Assembly (NCBI GenBank): GCA_040755005.1
Contig: JBFMBV010000007.1
Span: 1,181 to 65,180 of the forward strand
Length of the DNA stretch: 64,000 bases
Origin: Bacillota bacterium
Lineage (GTDB): Bacteria > Bacillota > Sulfobacillia > JBFMBV01
Reading direction: 5' to 3'
The position numbers and the translations under genes are program-made. Shown here in pieces: positions 1,619 through 36,709 of this stretch (positions are counted from its first letter, which is position 1; the number at the start of each line of letters is the position of its first letter). The notes below the pieces were generated by a model that searched no databases, was not told where the DNA came from, and saw only the letters and a program-made list of their open reading frames with translations.

Positions 1619-2918
1619 GCCAGACCCGGCCTACCCAGGCCGCCGCAACCTCCGTCCAGCTCGCGCCAAACAGGTCCCGACCGGAGGAGCCGTAAGCGAC
1701 AGCAGGTAAGATGAGCGTCCCGCCGCCCTCCCGTGGCAGCGCCGCCAGAAAGTCGGCGGTGGTCAGCAGGCCCGCGCTGCCAATAGAGCCCCCGAAAGCC
1801 CGCGACGGCACCGGGACAAGACGCACCCGCCCGCAGTCAAGCTCGGGCTGTAGGGCCAGGGCCAAGGCCCTGAGCCCCAACTCCGACGCTAGGACCGTGA
1901 CCCGCTCTCGGCGGGCAGCCCTGCGGATCCGCGCGATCTGTGCCATGTCCACGTCCCGCACGAACACAGCCCCGGAGGGCGCCTCCGGGGCTTTGCGCAC
2001 GCTCACTGACCGAAGGCCGGCGCCGGACCGTACCACCACTGACGGAGCGGTCCCTGCGGTGAGTAGGTCATAGGCCTCCAAGCGGCAGCGCGGCCGCACC
2101 CCACTCACCTCAAGCAGTTCGTCCCCGGCCCCGAGGCCTGCGGCTTCCGCCGGCGACCCCTTCACCACCCCGGCCAGCGTGGGCCGGAGATCCCGCACTT
2201 CCCCAGGCTCGGGCACCACCGGCAGTCCGTACGCGAGGGTCCAACCCTCGCAACGCCGCGTCAACTCGCTCAGAGTGCCGGGAGAGTGCCGCAGGTAAGC
2301 GGGGGCCAGGCTCGTGTACCCGGGCAGGAAGGCCCGGATGGACCTGGCGCCGTGGGAGGCAAGGAAGCCCACGGTCCCGGCGGCGTCGTCCCAACCGGTG
2401 ACATGGGGCATGGCCACGAGGCTGCCGTGGAAAGGTACGCCCTCCCCGGCCAGCATTGCCACGGCCTCCAGCGCCCGGTCAGGCGACTCGTCGCCGAGCA
2501 GGGAGCGCCGAACAGTCCTGTCGACTGTGTTGAGGGAAACTGTCAGCTCGATGGGCGCCAGGCGCGCCAGAGCCCGTACGGCGGCCTGGTCAAGCAGGGT
2601 CGCGTTGGTCGTAACCCGCAAGCTTGCGCCGGTCGCGCGCCGCACCGCCTGGAGAATCTCGAGCACCGCCGGGTGGCAGAATGGTTCGCCCTCATCCACG
2701 CGCGTGGCGGATTCGCCGATGGTGACTGCGCCACGTGTTGCTGCCAGGGGCGCCTCGCTGACGACGGTCACGGGGTCACGATGGCCCAGGCGGTAGGTCC
2801 GCAGCCCGGGGGGGTTCCACTTCAGGTTGCAGAAGGCGCAGCCCAAGTTACAGGCGGAAGTAAGCGGCAAGACCCCAGCCAGGTTGGCGGACCTAAGCTC
2901 AGCTGCGGGTGCTGTCAC
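1611..2918 (-). CDS. Radical SAM protein with PDZ-like and DUF512-like domains
   Basis: CNLGCAFC motif, GEPF, TTNATLL; PDZ-like GSPAEAAGLGAGDELL; C-terminal FGGSIGSAGLLT. Confidence 0.8.
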   Translation of the reverse strand: MTAPAAELRSANLAGVLPLTSACNLGCAFCNLKWNPPGLRTYRLGHRDPVTVVSEAPLAATRGAVTIGESATRVDEGEPFCHPAVLEILQAVRRATGASLRVTTNATLLDQAAVRALARLAPIELTVSLNTVDRTVRRSLLGDESPDRALEAVAMLAGEGVPFHGSLVAMPHVTGWDDAAGTVGFLASHGARSIRAFLPGYTSLAPAYLRHSPGTLSELTRRCEGWTLAYGLPVVPEPGEVRDLRPTLAGVVKGSPAEAAGLGAGDELLEVSGVRPRCRLEAYDLLTAGTAPSVVVRSGAGLRSVSVRKAPEAPSGAVFVRDVDMAQIARIRRAARRERVTVLASELGLRALALALQPELDCGRVRLVPVPSRAFGGSIGSAGLLTTADFLAALPREGGGTLILPAVAYGSSGRDLFGASWTEVAAAWVGRVWLI

Positions 2919-3423
2919 GGGCGATGGTCTCCCTGATGGTCCGACGACCGGTCAGGACCCGGACCGGAACCCCCCCGGCGAAGCACCCGGCGGGGACGTC
3001 CTTGTTGACCAGGGAGGCGGCGGACACTACGGCTCCTTGCCCCACCGTCACCCCGGCCAGAATCGTGCAGTTCGCGCCGATGACCGCGCCCTCCCCTATG
3101 ACCACTGGGCCTGTCCGCCATTCCACGCGTAGGAACTCGTGGGCCAGGATGATGCTGTTGAACCCGATGATGCAGTCGTCCTGCAGCGTGATGAGCTCCG
3201 GCCACATGATGTCGAACCCCGCCTTGAACCCTACCGAGACGTTGCGGCCGACCTTCATCCCAGTCAGCCTGAGCACGCGCGCCTTCCACTCTAGACTGGG
3301 CAGGAAGCGCTGCAGTTCGATCAGGAGGAAGTTCCTGACCACCCGCCAGGGCGGGATGATGCGCGGCCAGTGCCGCAGGGAGTTCGGCCCATGGACGGGA
3401 TGGCTCACCAGCCGGCGCCTCAT
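2899..3423 (-). CDS. Hexapeptide-repeat acyltransferase, YvoF-like
   Basis: HPVHGPNSL..VVRNFLLI..DIMWPELITL..IIGFNSIILAHEFL..GPVVIG closely follows B. subtilis YvoF as recalled. Confidence 0.8.
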   Translation of the reverse strand: MRRRLVSHPVHGPNSLRHWPRIIPPWRVVRNFLLIELQRFLPSLEWKARVLRLTGMKVGRNVSVGFKAGFDIMWPELITLQDDCIIGFNSIILAHEFLRVEWRTGPVVIGEGAVIGANCTILAGVTVGQGAVVSAASLVNKDVPAGCFAGGVPVRVLTGRRTIRETIARDSTRS

Positions 3424-4415
3424 GAGGCCCACCCTGTGAGCGGCAGGTTGGCGACGGCATTGAGGTGTAGGTCAGCCGTCTTCCCCGCCAGCCGTTTGTG
3501 GTGGCCGGCGGCCGCCACCATGGCCCCGTTGTCGGTACAGAGTTCCTTCGGGGGTATCAACACCGTCATGCCTTCCTGCCTGCATACCTCCCGCAGCTGA
3601 CTGCGGAGGGTGTCATTGGCTGCCACACCTCCTGCCAACGCCACCGTCCCGACCCGGCAGGCCTTCGCCGCCGCCACGGTCTTATCCACCAGGGCAGTGA
3701 CGACGGCCAGCTGGAACGAGGCGGCCAGGTGCGCATCACCGTACTGCCCCCGGCGCGTCAGGGTGGCGGTCTTGAGGCCGCTGAAGCTGAAGTCGAAGCT
3801 CCCCTCTTCCAGCCGGGCCACAGGCAGCACGAGGGCTGAGGGGTCGCCCTGGGCGGCCAACCGCTCGAGGGCCGGACCGCCGGGGTATGACAACCCAAAA
3901 GCCCGGGCCACCTTATCGAAAGCTTCTCCGGCCGCATCGTCCCGGGTCCTGCCCAGGCGGGCGTAGTCGCCGTGGCCCCTGACCAGGATGAGCTCCGAGT
4001 GCCCACCTGAGGCCACCAGGCACACCCAGGGGAACGCCGGAGGGCTGGGGCGCAGGAGGTTGGCGTAAATGTGAGCCTCGATGTGGTGCACGGCCACGAG
4101 CGGCTTGTTCAAGGCGTAGGCCAGTGCCTTGGCCGCGGCCACACCGACCAGCAGGGCGCCAACCAACCCGGGTGCGTGGGTCACCGCCACCGTGTCAACC
4201 TGCGCAAGGCCGAGGCTGGCCCTGCGCAGGGTCTCCGCCAACACGGGCAGGAGGTTGGTCAGGTGCCGCCTGGAGGCCAGTTCGGGAACGACGCCGCCGT
4301 ACGCCTGGTGCAACTCGACCTGGGATGAGATCAAGCTGGCCAGGATCGACTCCCCACCCTCCACTAGGGCTACCGACGTTTCATCGCAGCTGGTCTCGAG
4401 GCCCAGCGTCACCAA
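3420..4415 (-). CDS. tsaD: tRNA N6-adenosine threonylcarbamoyltransferase TsaD
   Basis: LGLETSCDET, YGGVVPELASRRH, HHIEAH, SGGHS, DDAAGEAFDK, CTDNGAMVA. Confidence 0.97.
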   Translation of the reverse strand: MVTLGLETSCDETSVALVEGGESILASLISSQVELHQAYGGVVPELASRRHLTNLLPVLAETLRRASLGLAQVDTVAVTHAPGLVGALLVGVAAAKALAYALNKPLVAVHHIEAHIYANLLRPSPPAFPWVCLVASGGHSELILVRGHGDYARLGRTRDDAAGEAFDKVARAFGLSYPGGPALERLAAQGDPSALVLPVARLEEGSFDFSFSGLKTATLTRRGQYGDAHLAASFQLAVVTALVDKTVAAAKACRVGTVALAGGVAANDTLRSQLREVCRQEGMTVLIPPKELCTDNGAMVAAAGHHKRLAGKTADLHLNAVANLPLTGWAS

Positions 4416-30918: not shown

Positions 30919-32397
30919 CTATGCGTACCCCGTCCCGGCAATGCTGGCCAGCGCTTGCGGCAGGGCCTGAGCGATGTCCCCGGCGGTGGCGCCCCAAGGC
31001 CGGATGGACCCGAGGACTTCTCCCGCCAACCCGTGGATGAACGCGCCCAGGGCCGCGGCCTCGGTGGAAGGCAGGAAGTTGAGGTAGGCTGCGACCACCC
31101 CTGACAGCACATCGCCCGAACCGGCCGTGGCCAGGACAGGGTGACCTGACAAGTTGACCATGGCCTTGCCGTCAGACCCGGAAGTCACGGTGCCTGCGCC
31201 TTTCAGCACCACCGTGCAGCCGTGCTTCCGGGCGAGGGTTCGCGCCGTCCCGATCCGATCAGCCTGGACAGCCTCGACGCTGAGGCCGCACAGGCGGGCC
31301 ATCTCTTTGGGATGGGGGGTGAGCACCCTGAGGCCTGCGCTGCCGCCCACACGCCCGCCGCCCGCCTCGGCCATAGCGTTGAGTGCGTCTGCATCAACCA
31401 CCACCGGACCTGGGTACTGCGCCAACACGCCCAGGCACAGGGCCTTCGCCTCGGGGGAGCTGCCCGCGCCCGGCCCCACCACTACGGTCCCGTCGGCCGC
31501 CGCCAGGCATGCCTCCAAGGTCCCATCGGTCTCGACGGCCATCAGCTCCGGCGGCAACATGACACGGCCCAGCACGCCCGCAGGGACAACCAGCCGCACC
31601 AGGCCTGCCCCGGCCCTGAGGGCGCCCAGGCCCGCTAACACCGGCGCCCCCGGCATGGAGCGGCTGCCACCGATGACGGTGACGAGTCCGCCGCGGCCTT
31701 TGTGCCAGTCAGCGGGACGCCGGGGCAGCCTAGGACGGGCCCACGCCAGATCAGCGAGTTCCAAGCGGTCAGGTTCATCCTGCTGGACAGCCTCCAGACC
31801 GATGTCGGCCACGCTGAGCCTGCCTGCCAGCTCCCTACCAGGATAGAGAAACAACCCGGGCTTCAGGGGAGAGAGCGCCACCGTCAGGGTGGCGCGCACC
31901 GCCTCCCCTGGCGCCTGCCCGGTATCGGCCTCCACCCCCGACGGCAAGTCGCAGGAGACCACGCCCTTGCCCGAGGAGTTGATCGCGGCCGCGGCCAAAG
32001 CGAGGTCCCCGCGCAAGGGGCCCTGGAGGCCGGTGCCCGCCAGGGCATCGACGATGACGGCGGCTCCCCTCACCGCTACAGCCAATCCGGTCAGGGGCTG
32101 GGGCTGTAGCTCGCACCGGAGCCGTGCCAGGTGCCAAGCCGCCGGGCTGCCCGGAGCAGGCTCCCCCTGGAGCAGCGCCGACACCGGATAGCCCCAGCTC
32201 TTCAGCCAGGCAGCCGCGACTAGCCCGTCACCGCCGTTGTTCCCCTTCCCGCAGGCCACGACCACTGCTCCGGCCCGGGCGCGGGCCAGATCCCGCACCT
32301 GTACGCCCAGGGCTCGGCCAGCCCGGGCCATGAGTTCCTCCGGCGCCCCGCACCTTCGCTCCAGCGCACGGGTGGTCTGCGTATCGGCGAGCCTCAT
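30919..32397 (-). CDS. nnr: Bifunctional NAD(P)H-hydrate epimerase/dehydratase
   Basis: GKGNNGGDG, VDALAGTG, DLPSG; HKGRGG, GAGLV, VVDADAL, LTPHPKE, LKGAGT, LATAGSGDVLSG. Confidence 0.93.
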   Translation of the reverse strand: MRLADTQTTRALERRCGAPEELMARAGRALGVQVRDLARARAGAVVVACGKGNNGGDGLVAAAWLKSWGYPVSALLQGEPAPGSPAAWHLARLRCELQPQPLTGLAVAVRGAAVIVDALAGTGLQGPLRGDLALAAAAINSSGKGVVSCDLPSGVEADTGQAPGEAVRATLTVALSPLKPGLFLYPGRELAGRLSVADIGLEAVQQDEPDRLELADLAWARPRLPRRPADWHKGRGGLVTVIGGSRSMPGAPVLAGLGALRAGAGLVRLVVPAGVLGRVMLPPELMAVETDGTLEACLAAADGTVVVGPGAGSSPEAKALCLGVLAQYPGPVVVDADALNAMAEAGGGRVGGSAGLRVLTPHPKEMARLCGLSVEAVQADRIGTARTLARKHGCTVVLKGAGTVTSGSDGKAMVNLSGHPVLATAGSGDVLSGVVAAYLNFLPSTEAAALGAFIHGLAGEVLGSIRPWGATAGDIAQALPQALASIAGTGYA

Positions 32398-32780
32398 GCC
32401 GGCCCTCCCCTGAACCCCAGGGCCACTGCCGCGGCCACGCCCCGGTCGTGGGTCAGGCTGACGGCCACCCCCGCAAGGCCCAAGCTGGCAGCGGCAGCGG
32501 CACACGCCCCGGACAGCCTGACCCGGGGCCGTTCCCCCGGCTGCCTGGTTACTTCGATATCGCGCCAGCTCACTCCGCTCAACCCCAACCCCAGGCTCTT
32601 CAGGACTGCTTCCTTAGCCGCGAACCGGGCCGCCAGCCTCGCCGCATCCCCTCGGCATTCGCGCAGTTCAGCGCCGGTGAACAGCCGCTGGGACAGCCGT
32701 CCCCCCCACCTGGCCAGGGCATGGCGGAAGCGCTCCAGCTCGACCACGTCCAGTCCAAGACAAGCCTCCAGATGGACCAC
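32394..32780 (-). CDS. acpS: Holo-[acyl-carrier-protein] synthase
   Basis: LGLDVVELERF, LFTGAE, LAARFAAKEA, VSLTHD. Confidence 0.93.
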   Translation of the reverse strand: MVHLEACLGLDVVELERFRHALARWGGRLSQRLFTGAELRECRGDAARLAARFAAKEAVLKSLGLGLSGVSWRDIEVTRQPGERPRVRLSGACAAAAASLGLAGVAVSLTHDRGVAAAVALGFRGGPA

Positions 32781-32919
32781 CCCCTCCCTAAGGCTTCGCC
32801 GGACCTGGAGGTTTCCCTACTCCCTAGCCTTTCCAGAGAAATCTCCTCCATAAGCAGGAAGTAGAGGAAAAATAGCTAATATCGCAAACGCTACTTCCCG
32901 TTGAAAGGAAAGTCGCAGG

Positions 32920-34239
32920 ATGCATCTGGGTGAACGTATCAGGCGTTGCCGGCTGAGACTGGGCATGACCCAGCGGCAGCTGGCAGGGGATGACTTCTCG
33001 CCTGCCTTCATCAGCCAGGTCGAGCGGGGCGTCATCACCCCTTCCATCACATCGTTGCGCGTGATAGCCAGCCGTCTGGGCAAGGCAGCCAGCTACTTCG
33101 TGGACGATGATCAAGATGAGCGCCGCAAGGAACTCGATTTGATCCTGGCCAAAGGCCGGATCGCCTTCGGCCGGGGGGAGGCCGCCAAAGCCACTTCCTG
33201 TTTCCGCAAGGTCCAGCGCCTGGCCGAGGAGGGCGGCGACCGCCTGCGTCTAGCCCAAGCCACCGTGTGCCTGGGCTGGCTCGCATTGCGCCAGGGTGAG
33301 CCACAGTCCTGCCTCGACCAGATCGGGACCGCCTGGCCTACGCTGGCCGACCACCGCGCGACATCCCTGATGGCCCTCGCCCTTTTTTGCCAGGCTGAGG
33401 CCTACGCCGCCCTGCAGAGCCATGGCCAAGCGGTGCAGGTGGGCGAAGAGTGCCTGCGCCTGCTGGGCAACATCGACGCCAGCGACATCCTGTTCGAGGT
33501 ACGGGCGAGGCATGCCGCCGCCCGCTCCTACCAGGCCCTGGGCGACACGGCCCAAGCTTTGAGGCATCACGCCCAAGCCGCAGAACTCGCGGGGCGTATC
33601 GGCGGCCTGCTGGCCCTCAGCGAGGCGTGCCTACAACAGAGCACCAAGTGCGAGATCGAGGGGGAGCTCGACCAGGCCTTGGTCTGGGTCGACCGCGGCC
33701 AGACCTTCCTGGACGCCCTGGAAGGCAGCCGTGTCGCCGCCGAGATCCAGCATGGCATGGCTACGGCCTTAGCCGATGCAGGACGCTGGCCGGAAGCCGA
33801 CGCCCGTTTCCGGGAGGCCCTCCGCCTGAGGCGGCGAGCCGACGACCAGGCCGGCGAAGTCCGTACGCTGCTCGCCTTCGCCGGCGCCGCCCTTAAGGCT
33901 GAGCAGCTCGACCTAGTAGAACCAGTGCTGAGGCAGGCGCTGGACCTCGTCACCGGCACAGCCATGCAGGCCGAACAGGGCGTGTGCCACTATCTGCTAG
34001 GCGCCCTCGCGCGGTTGACAGGCGACAGGCCCATGGCCCATGCTCAGCTGGAGCAAGCCCTCACCTTGCTCGAGCCCAGGCAAGGCATGGACCTGGCCCA
34101 GGTCTACTACGAACTGGGCGAACTGCTGGCTGGAGAGGACCAGGAGCGGTCTTTGCAGTGCCTCCAGAAAGCCGCTGCCCTGTTCCGCGAGAGTGTCGGC
34201 GGCGGCTTCCGCGAGGCCGCGGCTGCTCGTTTGCCCTAG
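32920..34239 (+). CDS. XRE-HTH + TPR transcriptional regulator (RRNPP-like, copy A)
   Basis: N-terminal LGERIRRCR..MTQRQLA..SPAFISQVERG..PS..L..IASRL, then TPR-like helical repeats. Confidence 0.88.
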   Translation: MHLGERIRRCRLRLGMTQRQLAGDDFSPAFISQVERGVITPSITSLRVIASRLGKAASYFVDDDQDERRKELDLILAKGRIAFGRGEAAKATSCFRKVQRLAEEGGDRLRLAQATVCLGWLALRQGEPQSCLDQIGTAWPTLADHRATSLMALALFCQAEAYAALQSHGQAVQVGEECLRLLGNIDASDILFEVRARHAAARSYQALGDTAQALRHHAQAAELAGRIGGLLALSEACLQQSTKCEIEGELDQALVWVDRGQTFLDALEGSRVAAEIQHGMATALADAGRWPEADARFREALRLRRRADDQAGEVRTLLAFAGAALKAEQLDLVEPVLRQALDLVTGTAMQAEQGVCHYLLGALARLTGDRPMAHAQLEQALTLLEPRQGMDLAQVYYELGELLAGEDQERSLQCLQKAAALFRESVGGGFREAAAARLP

Positions 34240-34284
34240 GCCTGCAGGTCCCCTGCCCCAGGATGGACGGTAGGAGGAATTGGT

Positions 34285-35658
34285 GTGAGCCTGGGTGCCA
34301 AGATACGCATGGCCCGCAAGGGGCTGCGCATGACCCAGAAGGCGCTGGCCGGCGATGATTTTTCCCCTGCCCTGGTCAGCCAGCTCGAGCGCGACCAGAT
34401 CACCCCGTCCCTCGCCTCCCTGCGCGTGATCGCCACGAGGCTGCGTCGGCCAGTCAGCTACTTCCTGGAAGAGGAGATCACCAACCGGGAGCTAGAGCTG
34501 GACCTGCTGATCAGCCTAAGCGGGGTCTACCTAGCCCGAAAGGAATATGCGGACTCCCTGAACACCCTGGACCGGGCCATCACCGGGGCCCAGGAGATCG
34601 GCGATGCCTGGCGGCTGCTGGCCGCCAAGAAGGCGGCCGCCCAGGTGTACTTCGCCTGCCATGAGTACGATCAATCCATCACGTTCTATCTGGAGTGCCG
34701 CCGGGCCTATGAGCAGTTGGACGCCTGGCACGAGGCGGCCAGCTGCGCCTTCTCCATCGGGGTGATCCACCAGTGCAGGTCCGACCCCAGGCAGGCTATC
34801 GCGGCCTACGAGGAAGCCCTGGTGCTGGTGGACCGGGCCCCGAACCCCGACACCATGCTCAGGCTGAGGATCCTGGGGAACCTGGGCGGGTGCCTGTGTC
34901 GGCTAGGCCAGTATGAGCGCGGCATCACCCTCCACGAAGAGGCCATGGCCCTCGCCAAGCGCGTCGACGACTTTCAGCGCATCGCCCAGAACTACTTGTG
35001 GATGGGCCTAGCCCACCGCGACCGCGGCGACCTGAGAAACGCCCTCGATTACACCCGCCGCAGCCTGGACATCTTCAACTCCTTGGACAGCATCCGCTAC
35101 GTAGCCGACACCCACACCAACCTAGGCATCATCCTGGCGGAGCAAGGGGACTGGGAGAAGGCCTATCCGCACCTGGTGGAGAGCCTCCGCCTGCAGCGGC
35201 AGGTGGAGAACCCCCGCGGCGAGTGCCACGCCTTGTCGGAGGTTGCCGCCTACTACCTGCTCCATGACCGGGTAGCCAAGGCTGAGGACCATGCCAGCCG
35301 CGCGCTGCATATCGCGGTGCAGATCGGGGACCAGTTTGAGATCGCCCGGTGCCGTCAGGTCCTGGGCGGGATCCGCAGCAAGCAGGGTCAGCACGAAGCT
35401 GCCGTCGAGGAGCTCACGCAAGGGCTCAGAGTGATCGAGGCCCTAGACGCGCCTGCCCGGACGGCCAGGTTCCACCACGACCTCGCGGAGGAATACACAC
35501 ATTTGGGCCGCCCGTCAGAGGCCAGGGCCCACTACGAGGCTGCGGTGGAGCTGTACAAACAAGCGGCCGTGAAAGGAGGAGGTTCAGGTGAGGAAGATCT
35601 GCGCCTGGTTGCTGGCGGCGGTCCTCTGCCTGGGGGTGCTTGTCCCAGCGGCGCTTAA
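34285..35658 (+). CDS. XRE-HTH + TPR transcriptional regulator (RRNPP/NprR-PlcR-like, copy B)
   Basis: Same HTH; TPRs with ILGNLGG, AQNYLWMG, THTNLGII; RBS AGGAGG. Confidence 0.9.
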   Translation: MSLGAKIRMARKGLRMTQKALAGDDFSPALVSQLERDQITPSLASLRVIATRLRRPVSYFLEEEITNRELELDLLISLSGVYLARKEYADSLNTLDRAITGAQEIGDAWRLLAAKKAAAQVYFACHEYDQSITFYLECRRAYEQLDAWHEAASCAFSIGVIHQCRSDPRQAIAAYEEALVLVDRAPNPDTMLRLRILGNLGGCLCRLGQYERGITLHEEAMALAKRVDDFQRIAQNYLWMGLAHRDRGDLRNALDYTRRSLDIFNSLDSIRYVADTHTNLGIILAEQGDWEKAYPHLVESLRLQRQVENPRGECHALSEVAAYYLLHDRVAKAEDHASRALHIAVQIGDQFEIARCRQVLGGIRSKQGQHEAAVEELTQGLRVIEALDAPARTARFHHDLAEEYTHLGRPSEARAHYEAAVELYKQAAVKGGGSGEEDLRLVAGGGPLPGGACPSGA

Positions 35659-35785
35659 GCCCGCAGTGGAGAGCGCCACCCTCGAGTCAGCCGGGACCGT
35701 GCTGGCCCAAATCACGATCTGCGGTCCTAACGAACCCATCGAACCCCCCGACGGCCCACTGCCCCCGCGCGGGAACGTAACTTAA
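35588..35785 (+). CDS. Small secreted propeptide, candidate RRNPP signalling-peptide precursor
   Basis: Strong RBS AAAGGAGGAGG; MRK + hydrophobic signal peptide; 65 aa; directly follows the TPR regulator and precedes a terminator. Confidence 0.75.
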   Translation: MRKICAWLLAAVLCLGVLVPAALKPAVESATLESAGTVLAQITICGPNEPIEPPDGPLPPRGNVT

Positions 35786-35799
35786 CTCCGCAGTACACA

Positions 35800-35828
35800 A
35801 GGCACGGCCCCGGGCCGTGCCTCTTGTT
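35800..35828 (+). terminator. Terminator after the propeptide gene
   Basis: AGGCACGGCC-CCG-GGCCGTGCCT followed by CTTGTT. Confidence 0.65.
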
Positions 35829-35896
35829 GCCACGGGTCGGTCGTCTGCCGTGGTATAATGCTCTCGAACGGCCGGAGCCCGAGAGGAGCAGCCTCA

Positions 35897-36709
35897 ATGA
35901 ACCCTAGCCGGCCCCAACTCCTCGTCCAGTGCTCCACCGGGGCGCTGCCCTCCATCTGCCTGGGCGAGCGCAGCACACCAGCCACCGTCGCCGCCGCCGT
36001 GCAGCTGCTCGCCTGGGACGCGGTGGAGCTGAAACTGGAGGGTGCGTGGTGGAGCCCGTCCGAGTTCGTGGAAGCAGCCCGCCGGCTGGTGGACGCGGGG
36101 GTCTCCGTGGCCACGGTGCATGCACCCAACCGCTTCGAACGGCTGTTGGGGTTCCCCGGCCGTACCGGCGAAGCCCTCGCCCTCCTGCAGGCCTGCCTGG
36201 CGACAGCCTCAACTGCGGGGGCGTCCACCCTGGTCCTGCATGGCTGGGACCTGCGCCTGCCGGGCTTCGACCCGGAACAGATGGTAGCCGGCATCAATGC
36301 CTGCGCTGAGGCGTCCGGCCAAGTGACGCTTAGCATTGAAGCCCTGCCCGGATTCACCCGCATGCTGCCCTTGATAGTGCAAGCCTGCCCTGCGGTTACC
36401 TGGACGGCCGACACGAAGTGGGCTACCGTGGACGGCGGTTGGGAGAAGCTGTTCGGACTCGCTGGCCGCATCGACAACGTCCATGTCCAGAGCAGGATCG
36501 AACCGGTTGGGGAAAACGGGGTCGTCCTCGGCCAGACGGAGGCAGGCTACTGTGATGTCCCTGCCACCCTGGCCCGCCTTGCCGCCAGCGGCTGTGGCGG
36601 CGCCATCACCTTTGAGCCAAACGGGGTGCGGCCGGGAGAGGCGGCGTCCGTGCACAGGGCCCTCAGAGCGCTGGCGAGCGCCCTGCATGCGCTGCCCCCG
36701 GCCCCCTGA
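35897..36709 (+). CDS. Sugar-phosphate isomerase/AP-endonuclease-2 TIM-barrel protein
   Basis: DAVEL, VATVHAP, LVLHG, LSIEAL, TADTKW, IDNVHV, ITFE; RBS AGGAG; upstream TG-TATAAT at 35851-35859. Confidence 0.7.
   Translation: MNPSRPQLLVQCSTGALPSICLGERSTPATVAAAVQLLAWDAVELKLEGAWWSPSEFVEAARRLVDAGVSVATVHAPNRFERLLGFPGRTGEALALLQACLATASTAGASTLVLHGWDLRLPGFDPEQMVAGINACAEASGQVTLSIEALPGFTRMLPLIVQACPAVTWTADTKWATVDGGWEKLFGLAGRIDNVHVQSRIEPVGENGVVLGQTEAGYCDVPATLARLAASGCGGAITFEPNGVRPGEAASVHRALRALASALHALPPAP

Follow-up and report, generated by a model that had tools for sequence, protein, structure and literature searches.

A candidate NprR-NprX-like receptor-propeptide pair accompanied by a diverged receptor paralog in an uncultured Bacillota-like bacterium

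In a 64,000-nt stretch of contig JBFMBV010000007.1 from an uncultured sediment bacterium (the whole stretch is called the window below, and positions are counted along it), two tandem genes, A and B, encode proteins with an XRE-type helix-turn-helix (HTH) followed by an array of tetratricopeptide repeats (TPRs), and the 3' end of B is overlapped by a 65-aa gene, P, with an export-type N-terminus. We judge it probable, if narrowly so, that B and P form a receptor-propeptide pair of the NprR-NprX kind, in which P would be exported, processed, taken up again and bound in the groove of B, and that A is a co-transcribed, diverged paralog. This reading draws on gene order and sequence comparison, on the predicted fold of B and on analogy with the known system.

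Gene P and the A-B-P unit

The window belongs to a genome assembly of 1.89 Mb in 57 contigs, 97% complete, with DNA of 66% G+C. A comparison by GlmS, in which the best match was 56% identical and recorded as 'Bacillota bacterium', told nothing further about its taxonomy. The locus is laid out as follows.

32394-32780, minus strand: upstream neighbour, an acpS-like gene (identity from the translation alone), divergent to A
32781-32919, no strand assigned: divergent intergenic region between the acpS-like gene and A, AT-richer, candidate promoter/operator
32920-34239, plus strand: gene A, ATG start, 439 aa, XRE-type HTH and TPR array, diverged paralog
34285-35658, plus strand: gene B, GTG start, 457 aa, XRE-type HTH and nine TPR-like repeats, candidate peptide receptor
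35572-35582, plus strand: Shine-Dalgarno (SD) site AAAGGAGGAGG of P, containing AGGAGG, 5 nt 5' of the GTG and within the 3' end of B
35588-35785, plus strand: gene P, GTG start, 65 aa, export-type pre-peptide, sharing 71 nt with the 3' end of B
35723-35767, plus strand: conserved core of P, G46-P60 (GPNEPIEPPDGPLPP), candidate mature-signal region
35800-35829 including the tail, plus strand: terminator-like hairpin with a 10-bp stem and a 3-nt loop, then CTTGTTG

The list of open reading frames (ORFs) and the Pfam matches agree, in position and length alike, with an earlier note on this DNA that had described two tandem XRE-TPR genes and a 65-aa ORF. Because the gaps are 45 nt between A and B and -71 nt between B and P, no terminator-like site was found within A-B-P 5' of the hairpin that follows P, and the upstream neighbour is divergently oriented, we propose that the three genes form one transcription unit closed by that hairpin. 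A and B are the sole full-length members of their family in the window genome, where 2 more matches cover the HTH only.

P is a genuine gene, as indicated by its SD site, the codon composition of the overlap, the hairpin behind it, the rarity of ORFs of its kind and the changes between strains. The strong ribosome-binding site and the terminator that the earlier note had assigned to the small ORF were both borne out, the first by AAAGGAGGAGG and the second by the hairpin behind the stop codon. This G+C-rich hairpin (35800-35822) has a predicted free energy of -28.6 kcal/mol (z = -2.77), and 1 of 200 shuffles was as stable; it was not among the sites returned by a consensus terminator scan. In the 71-nt overlap, the G+C content at third codon positions (GC3) was 0.88 in the P frame, where second positions (GC2) stood at 0.46, compared to a GC3 of 0.46 in the B frame. 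Elsewhere GC3 was 0.80 in A and 0.86 in B ahead of the overlap. The ~26 residues of B that lie in the overlap (432-457) are disordered in the structural model, with a predicted local distance difference test score (pLDDT) below 50, and are the only unstructured part of it. A crude filter for small ORFs of export type (30-100 aa, SD-like site, positive N-terminus, hydrophobic run of 12-30 residues, GC3 above GC2) was passed by 16 ORFs in the whole 1.89-Mb genome (~0.008 per kb), P among them.

Related strains supplied the remaining evidence on P. The entire A-B-P stretch is present at ~97% identity on sediment metagenome contigs from one study, and parts of it, at low depth, in a groundwater run from a second. 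Protein variants of B carry P449L, C453Y/H and S455C in the overlap. These changes are radical in the B frame, whereas in the P frame the same changes are synonymous or V19I, as reconstructed by parsimony from proteins and not from DNA. A 14,266-nt contig that spans A-B-P has 82 differences and one 1-nt insertion, which lies in the terminator hairpin; in related strains this insertion is a C or a G behind 35807 or 35809, and two alleles coexist in two runs.

The P protein opens with an MRK n-region of charge +2; residues 4-23 then form a hydrophobic run of 20 residues (mean hydropathy 2.55), and ~40 residues follow. These features were assigned by a crude rule rather than by a signal-peptide predictor. 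P had no credible match in Pfam or NCBIfam.

Receptor B and a peptide core shared with a second genome

The association of P with a receptor of this family recurs in a distant genome. When the flanks of homologous regulators were scanned at nine loci in further genomes of this class, a locus (L008) of genome G015, which belongs to a different family of the class, was found to carry a 64-aa ORF (P0025) that starts 5 nt behind the stop codon of a single XRE-TPR gene, with a hairpin-like sequence 3' of it. G015 holds just one regulator of the family. P and P0025 are 43% identical (BLASTP, E = 9e-5), and both have a signal-like N-terminus, with a clear ANA|S site in P0025. They share the core GPN(D/E)-(G)-PI(D/E)PPD-P-P, in which G46, P47, N48, P50, I51, P53, P54, D55, P57 and P59 of P are invariant between the two. 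A profile built from both peptides gave strong matches among 210 genomes of the class in the window genome and G015 only, and 19 further places at E = 0.006-0.1 were treated as noise. The same profile recovered only P and P0025 from a collection of 5.8 billion proteins. The ESM Atlas gave no usable match for peptide homologs, and in a contig scan with the two-peptide alignment the matches rested on signal-peptide words and no homolog was confirmed. We conclude that the predicted receptor-peptide link is conserved in a second genome. In the family tree described below, the G015 receptor falls in the other main clade, and a homologous peptide is, on these comparisons, tied to receptors from two deeply split subclades.

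Both A and B match the Pfam model HTH_3 at the N-terminus and then many TPR models (TPR_12, 6.6e-20 for A and 4.8e-40 for B), and neither protein scores above the cut-off of any curated NCBIfam model. In the model of B (pLDDT 90.7), an XRE head of five helices is joined by a long linker helix to nine helix pairs. Comparison with NprR (5dbk) gave Z = 27.4 at 12% identity, residues 64-425 of the model being placed on 64-418 of the chain (352 of 355 aligned), and comparison with NprR-NprX (4gpk) gave Z = 25.5. RapJ (4gyo) aligned over the whole TPR domain with Z = 27.9, and phage and plasmid Rap proteins, RapI and RapF were also among the fold matches over that domain (Z 25-28). A family profile of 21 members matched NprR at 3.3e-27 and PlcR at 5e-20, the latter in one stretch over PlcR 1-282 (HTH and TPRs). 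As a single sequence B matched NprR weakly (E = 0.069), and the HTH of A alone matched PlcR at E = 1.6e-3. In architecture and predicted fold B fits the NprR/Rap branch of the RRNPP receptors, a likeness that a generic TPR regulator could also show.

The asparagines (Asn) of the TPR domain are compatible with peptide binding by B. Across 23 family members the best-kept Asn columns are those of B N199 (12/23) and B N279 (15/23), and Asn stands at both columns in B, in P0002 from another genome, in the G015 receptor and in a distant family member, L052. In NprR, Asn194, Asn275 and Asn306 hydrogen-bond the peptide backbone, and Asn275 is described as a residue that all RNPP proteins conserve (PMC3763537). 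From the aligned ranges rather than from a residue-level alignment, N199, N279 and N309 of B are plausible counterparts of these three residues. In B protein variants of 4 strains (95-99% identity), N199, N236, N279 and N309 are invariant. Complex prediction for B(60-432) with P(24-65), scored at 0.36, 0.02 and 0.03 where the mark is 0.32, gave no verdict and was not used for any reading.

NprR-NprX of the Bacillus cereus group (4GPK, 5DBK) resembles the present locus in having a receptor of ~420-460 aa with an XRE-type HTH and nine TPR-like repeats, and a propeptide gene directly downstream on the same strand, with a Sec-type signal (in P a putative one, by the crude rule) and an active core (in P a candidate one) inside the pro-region, not at its very end. 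NprX is an internal heptapeptide, SKPDIVG (PMC3763537). The differences are that B reaches only the 12% structural-alignment identity given above, P is unrelated in sequence, the genes overlap by 71 nt, a second paralog lies upstream and the host is of an uncultured, deep-branching Bacillota-like lineage. PlcR-PapR of the same group (2QFC) likewise combines an HTH-TPR activator with a secreted propeptide gene just downstream; unlike B, PlcR has five TPRs and 285 aa, and no PlcR-box-like palindrome was found at the locus.

The signature used by RRNPP_detector comprises five criteria, including a receptor of 250-500 aa, TPRs, a propeptide of 10-100 aa as direct neighbour and Sec/SHP export (PMC10075063). 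A (439 aa) and B (457 aa) both fall in the receptor range and have TPRs. P (65 aa) fits the propeptide size and is adjacent to B, not to A, and for Sec export of P the indication comes from the crude hydropathy and charge rule only. The description of the locus as RRNPP-type in the earlier note therefore stands for the generic signature (receptor size, TPRs, peptide size, adjacency and HTH), and for the Sec signal it reaches as far as that rule. With the default settings of the program (-60 to 400 bp, ATG start; PMC10075063), P might be missed because of its 71-nt overlap and its GTG start.

In the mechanism that we propose, P would be exported through Sec by its N-terminal signal and cut outside the cell, giving a short peptide with part of the GPNEPIEPPD core, and an oligopeptide permease would re-import this peptide. 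The window genome has 4 SBP_bac_5 (OppA/DppA-type) genes above the Pfam cut-off, a family that includes dipeptide and nickel binders. Inside the cell the peptide would bind the concave face of the B TPR superhelix, where N199 and N279 would hold its backbone, and its binding would alter DNA binding by B through the XRE-type HTH. A, as an old diverged paralog on the same transcript, would modulate the same or overlapping promoters.

Several observations weigh against this interpretation of B and P. In Foldseek and in a second structural comparison of B, the eukaryotic peptide-binding TPR proteins LGN/Pins ranked first (Z ~30), and generic TPR proteins (LGN/Pins, designed TPRs) scored as high as RRNPP receptors or higher; by family profile, designed TPRs, Pins/LGN and OGT outscored NprR and PlcR. 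Resemblance by fold or profile therefore does not discriminate. Many RRNPP systems have fast-diverging pherotype peptides, unlike P, the core of which is kept between two receptors with only 28% TPR identity. The signal-peptidase site of P is ambiguous, with candidate cuts after VPA, PAA or VESA. At 13 of the 15 other family loci examined, some of them close relatives of each other, the regulator has no credible small ORF of export type next to it (L005-L007, L009-L013, L047-L049, L051 and L061), and at the loci of the nearest relatives of B (P0002/L048 and L005) convergent genes leave no downstream room. Many family members thus work without an adjacent peptide gene, and the family is mixed. 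The 71-nt overlap of B and P also lies beyond the -50 to 191 bp that separate the reference RRNPP receptor-propeptide pairs (PMC10075063).

Some of these observations would suit a different role for P, that of a small exported or membrane-anchored protein and not a diffusible signal, for example a regulated product or a tethered reporter of the envelope state. With its cleavage site ambiguous, P could keep the hydrophobic segment as a membrane anchor, conservation of the core across deeply diverged receptors suits a structural or partner role, and most family members are without an adjacent peptide gene. We nevertheless hold this role to be doubtful, since the size of P, its position behind the receptor and its overlap with the end of the regulator match known pairs (by the criteria given in PMC10075063), and a short, conserved, proline-rich core in a variable pro-region is typical of propeptides, that of NprX also being internal (PMC3763537).

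If B and P do act as a receptor and its propeptide, RRNPP-type signalling would reach an uncultured, deep-branching Bacillota-like class via a receptor subfamily unnamed by curated models. The locus would then be a compact natural case for studying the role of a second, groove-altered receptor copy in one operon, and for asking why the core of a signalling peptide persists over family-level distances; at 3 kb it is small enough to move into laboratory Bacillus. If the cautious part alone holds, it would add a further candidate to a well-known class of cassettes.

Paralog A and the two-regulator question

BLASTP aligned A with B over 412 residues at 29% identity (E = 3e-39), which marks them as paralogs. 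The earlier note had described near-identical HTHs attached to very divergent TPR domains, and had inferred that B senses the peptide while A binds the same operator as a peptide-blind competitor or heterodimer partner, or senses another signal. The TPR domains are indeed far apart (21% identity). The motif residues quoted for the HTHs are present in both proteins, but over 62 residues the two are only 61% identical (38/62), and each is closer to P0002 (73% for B, 69% for A) than to the other. Therefore, the motif is the consensus of the whole family, and the likeness of the HTHs gives no special support to a shared A/B operator. The recognition-helix regions are alike (FSPAFISQVERG in A, FSPALVSQLERD in B), and similar DNA specificity across the whole family is plausible from the sequences. 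Inverted-repeat, genome-copy and shared-word searches around the locus identified no operator shared by A and B.

The contrast in TPR asparagines that the earlier note had drawn was confirmed by counting: B has 9 Asn and A has 1 (N184, which is Asp in a variant strain), and A carries Ala199 and Gly279 at the two family-conserved columns. Having lost these groove asparagines, A most likely lacks the same mode of P-peptide binding. A also contains fewer residues with AT-rich codons and more Ala, Gly and Arg, and its loss of Asn may in part be compositional. A is modelled (pLDDT 84.5) with the helix pattern seen in B, and confidence falls to 62-66 around residues 220-270.

A is maintained by purifying selection and is less constrained than B, as its listed changes between strains are mostly synonymous but its amino-acid changes outnumber those of B. 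Among the differences listed, 27 of 39 in A fall at third codon positions, and of 36 changed codons 26 are synonymous and 10 non-synonymous; the A variant P0079 has 2 more amino-acid differences outside the listed ones. Between what are apparently the same two strains, amino-acid changes number 12/439 in A and 3/457 in B, or ~4x faster change in A. The pairing of strains was made through P0079 and P0174, each of which is recorded on a 23,051-nt contig.

A bolder version of the proposal for B and P, which we regard as rather unlikely, would make the unit a push-pull arrangement: B would be switched by the peptide, A would be a peptide-blind competitor or mixed-oligomer partner on the same operators, and the A:B ratio would set the quorum threshold. 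A further point of this bolder version is the P core GPN-PI(D/E)PPD, which, being kept across receptors of two deeply split subclades, would be an ancient signal common to whole lineages rather than a pherotype private to one strain.

Alternatively, A and B might both bind P-derived peptides (the same or different fragments) and act in opposite ways on shared promoters. The two are co-operonic with a single peptide gene and similar in their recognition-helix regions, and A keeps a full TPR scaffold under purifying selection; antagonistic paralogs also have a precedent in the Rgg2/Rgg3 receptors of Streptococcus pyogenes, which compete on the same promoters (PMC3509411; also PMC3150281). What makes such a two-receptor arrangement improbable in our view is that A is without both family-conserved groove asparagines, its central TPRs are modelled at low confidence, and the HTH likeness is a feature of the whole family rather than of this pair. 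Rgg2/Rgg3 with SHP2/SHP3 would be the nearest known precedent for the proposed two-regulator logic. Unlike A and B, the two Rgg genes do not lie in tandem; each comes with a peptide gene of its own, both proteins bind peptide, and the peptides exit by PptAB, not Sec. In B. subtilis, orphan Rap proteins respond to Phr peptides encoded elsewhere, and Rap proteins have no HTH. A is likewise a receptor paralog without a peptide gene of its own, next to one that would have it, and differs from the orphan Rap proteins in its HTH, in its proposed co-transcription with the cassette and in the loss of groove Asn. Tandem receptors with one common propeptide were not found discussed in the passages searched in two papers, PMC10075063 and PMC9765709.

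Family members elsewhere and DNA around the unit

A quick maximum-likelihood tree of 25 family members placed B with P0002 and L005 (support of 92 in the Shimodaira-Hasegawa-like approximate likelihood ratio test, SH-aLRT), which are single-copy homologs without a peptide gene. A was unresolved on a long branch (1.48 compared to 0.97 for B) within the same nine-member clade as B (support 97). In this quick tree, A and B would be neither sister copies nor a recent duplicate pair. Contig scans for further members gave two matches, both HTH-only, with B alone, and 17 loci with a smaller family alignment (A3).

L052, from another metagenome-assembled genome, has an unrelated 41-aa ORF (2816-2941, plus strand) just 5' of its XRE-TPR gene (3001-4293). 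The ORF is preceded by an SD site, and its product has a classic signal peptide (AFA|G) ahead of a tail of 14 residues; the two genes would make a second, independent peptide-receptor pairing in the family. At L006 (G019) and L007 (G011), a single XRE-TPR gene lies between NAD-kinase-like and TlyA-like methyltransferase genes (as judged only from the first residues of their translations), a housekeeping context with no downstream room for a peptide gene.

That family members are single genes in varied housekeeping contexts in most genomes examined, and that no shared operator was found, would agree with A and B being stand-alone XRE-TPR stress or developmental regulators and P a functionally unlinked neighbour. 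We consider this very improbable, because the same peptide family occurs behind a homologous regulator in the distant G015 and gives no strong match elsewhere in the 210 class genomes, and export-type small ORFs are as rare as the filter count indicates. It is hardly credible that A is a decaying duplicate heading to a pseudogene: its long branch, weaker TPR matches, 12 against 3 amino-acid changes and shift to Ala, Gly and Arg would suit decay, but its frame is intact in both strains, its GC3 is 0.80, its predicted fold is coherent, and the listed differences lie mainly at third positions (27/39) and leave most changed codons synonymous (26/36).

In the intergenic region 5' of A, an inverted repeat, GGAAGTAG-N26-CTACTTCC (32857-32898), brackets TAATAT; it has one copy in the genome and therefore defines no regulon. 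The 10-mer AGCAGGAAGT occurs both upstream of A and upstream of the receptor gene at L008 in G015, with a rough chance expectation of ~0.07, and is the only longer word shared between the A upstream region and those of other loci. We treat it as a lead, and only that, for an operator half-site. AGCAGGAA occurs upstream of the L052 regulator as well as of A and the G015 receptor gene. A sigma-70 consensus scan of 32400-36200 gave 0 sites.

Directly behind the terminator, an extended -10-like element, TGgTATAAT, lies at 35851-35859 and is overlapped by an inverted repeat, CCACGG-N12-CCGTGG (35831-35854). As a candidate regulon operator this repeat was rejected, with 2 exact copies, and 52 copies at one mismatch compared to 24 for a reversed control, a count that is uninformative. 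The first ATG of the downstream ORF, at 35858, is inside the -10-like element, and the ATG at 35898, after GAGGAG, is the more plausible start. From its translation only, this downstream gene resembles a sugar-phosphate isomerase/TIM-barrel protein.

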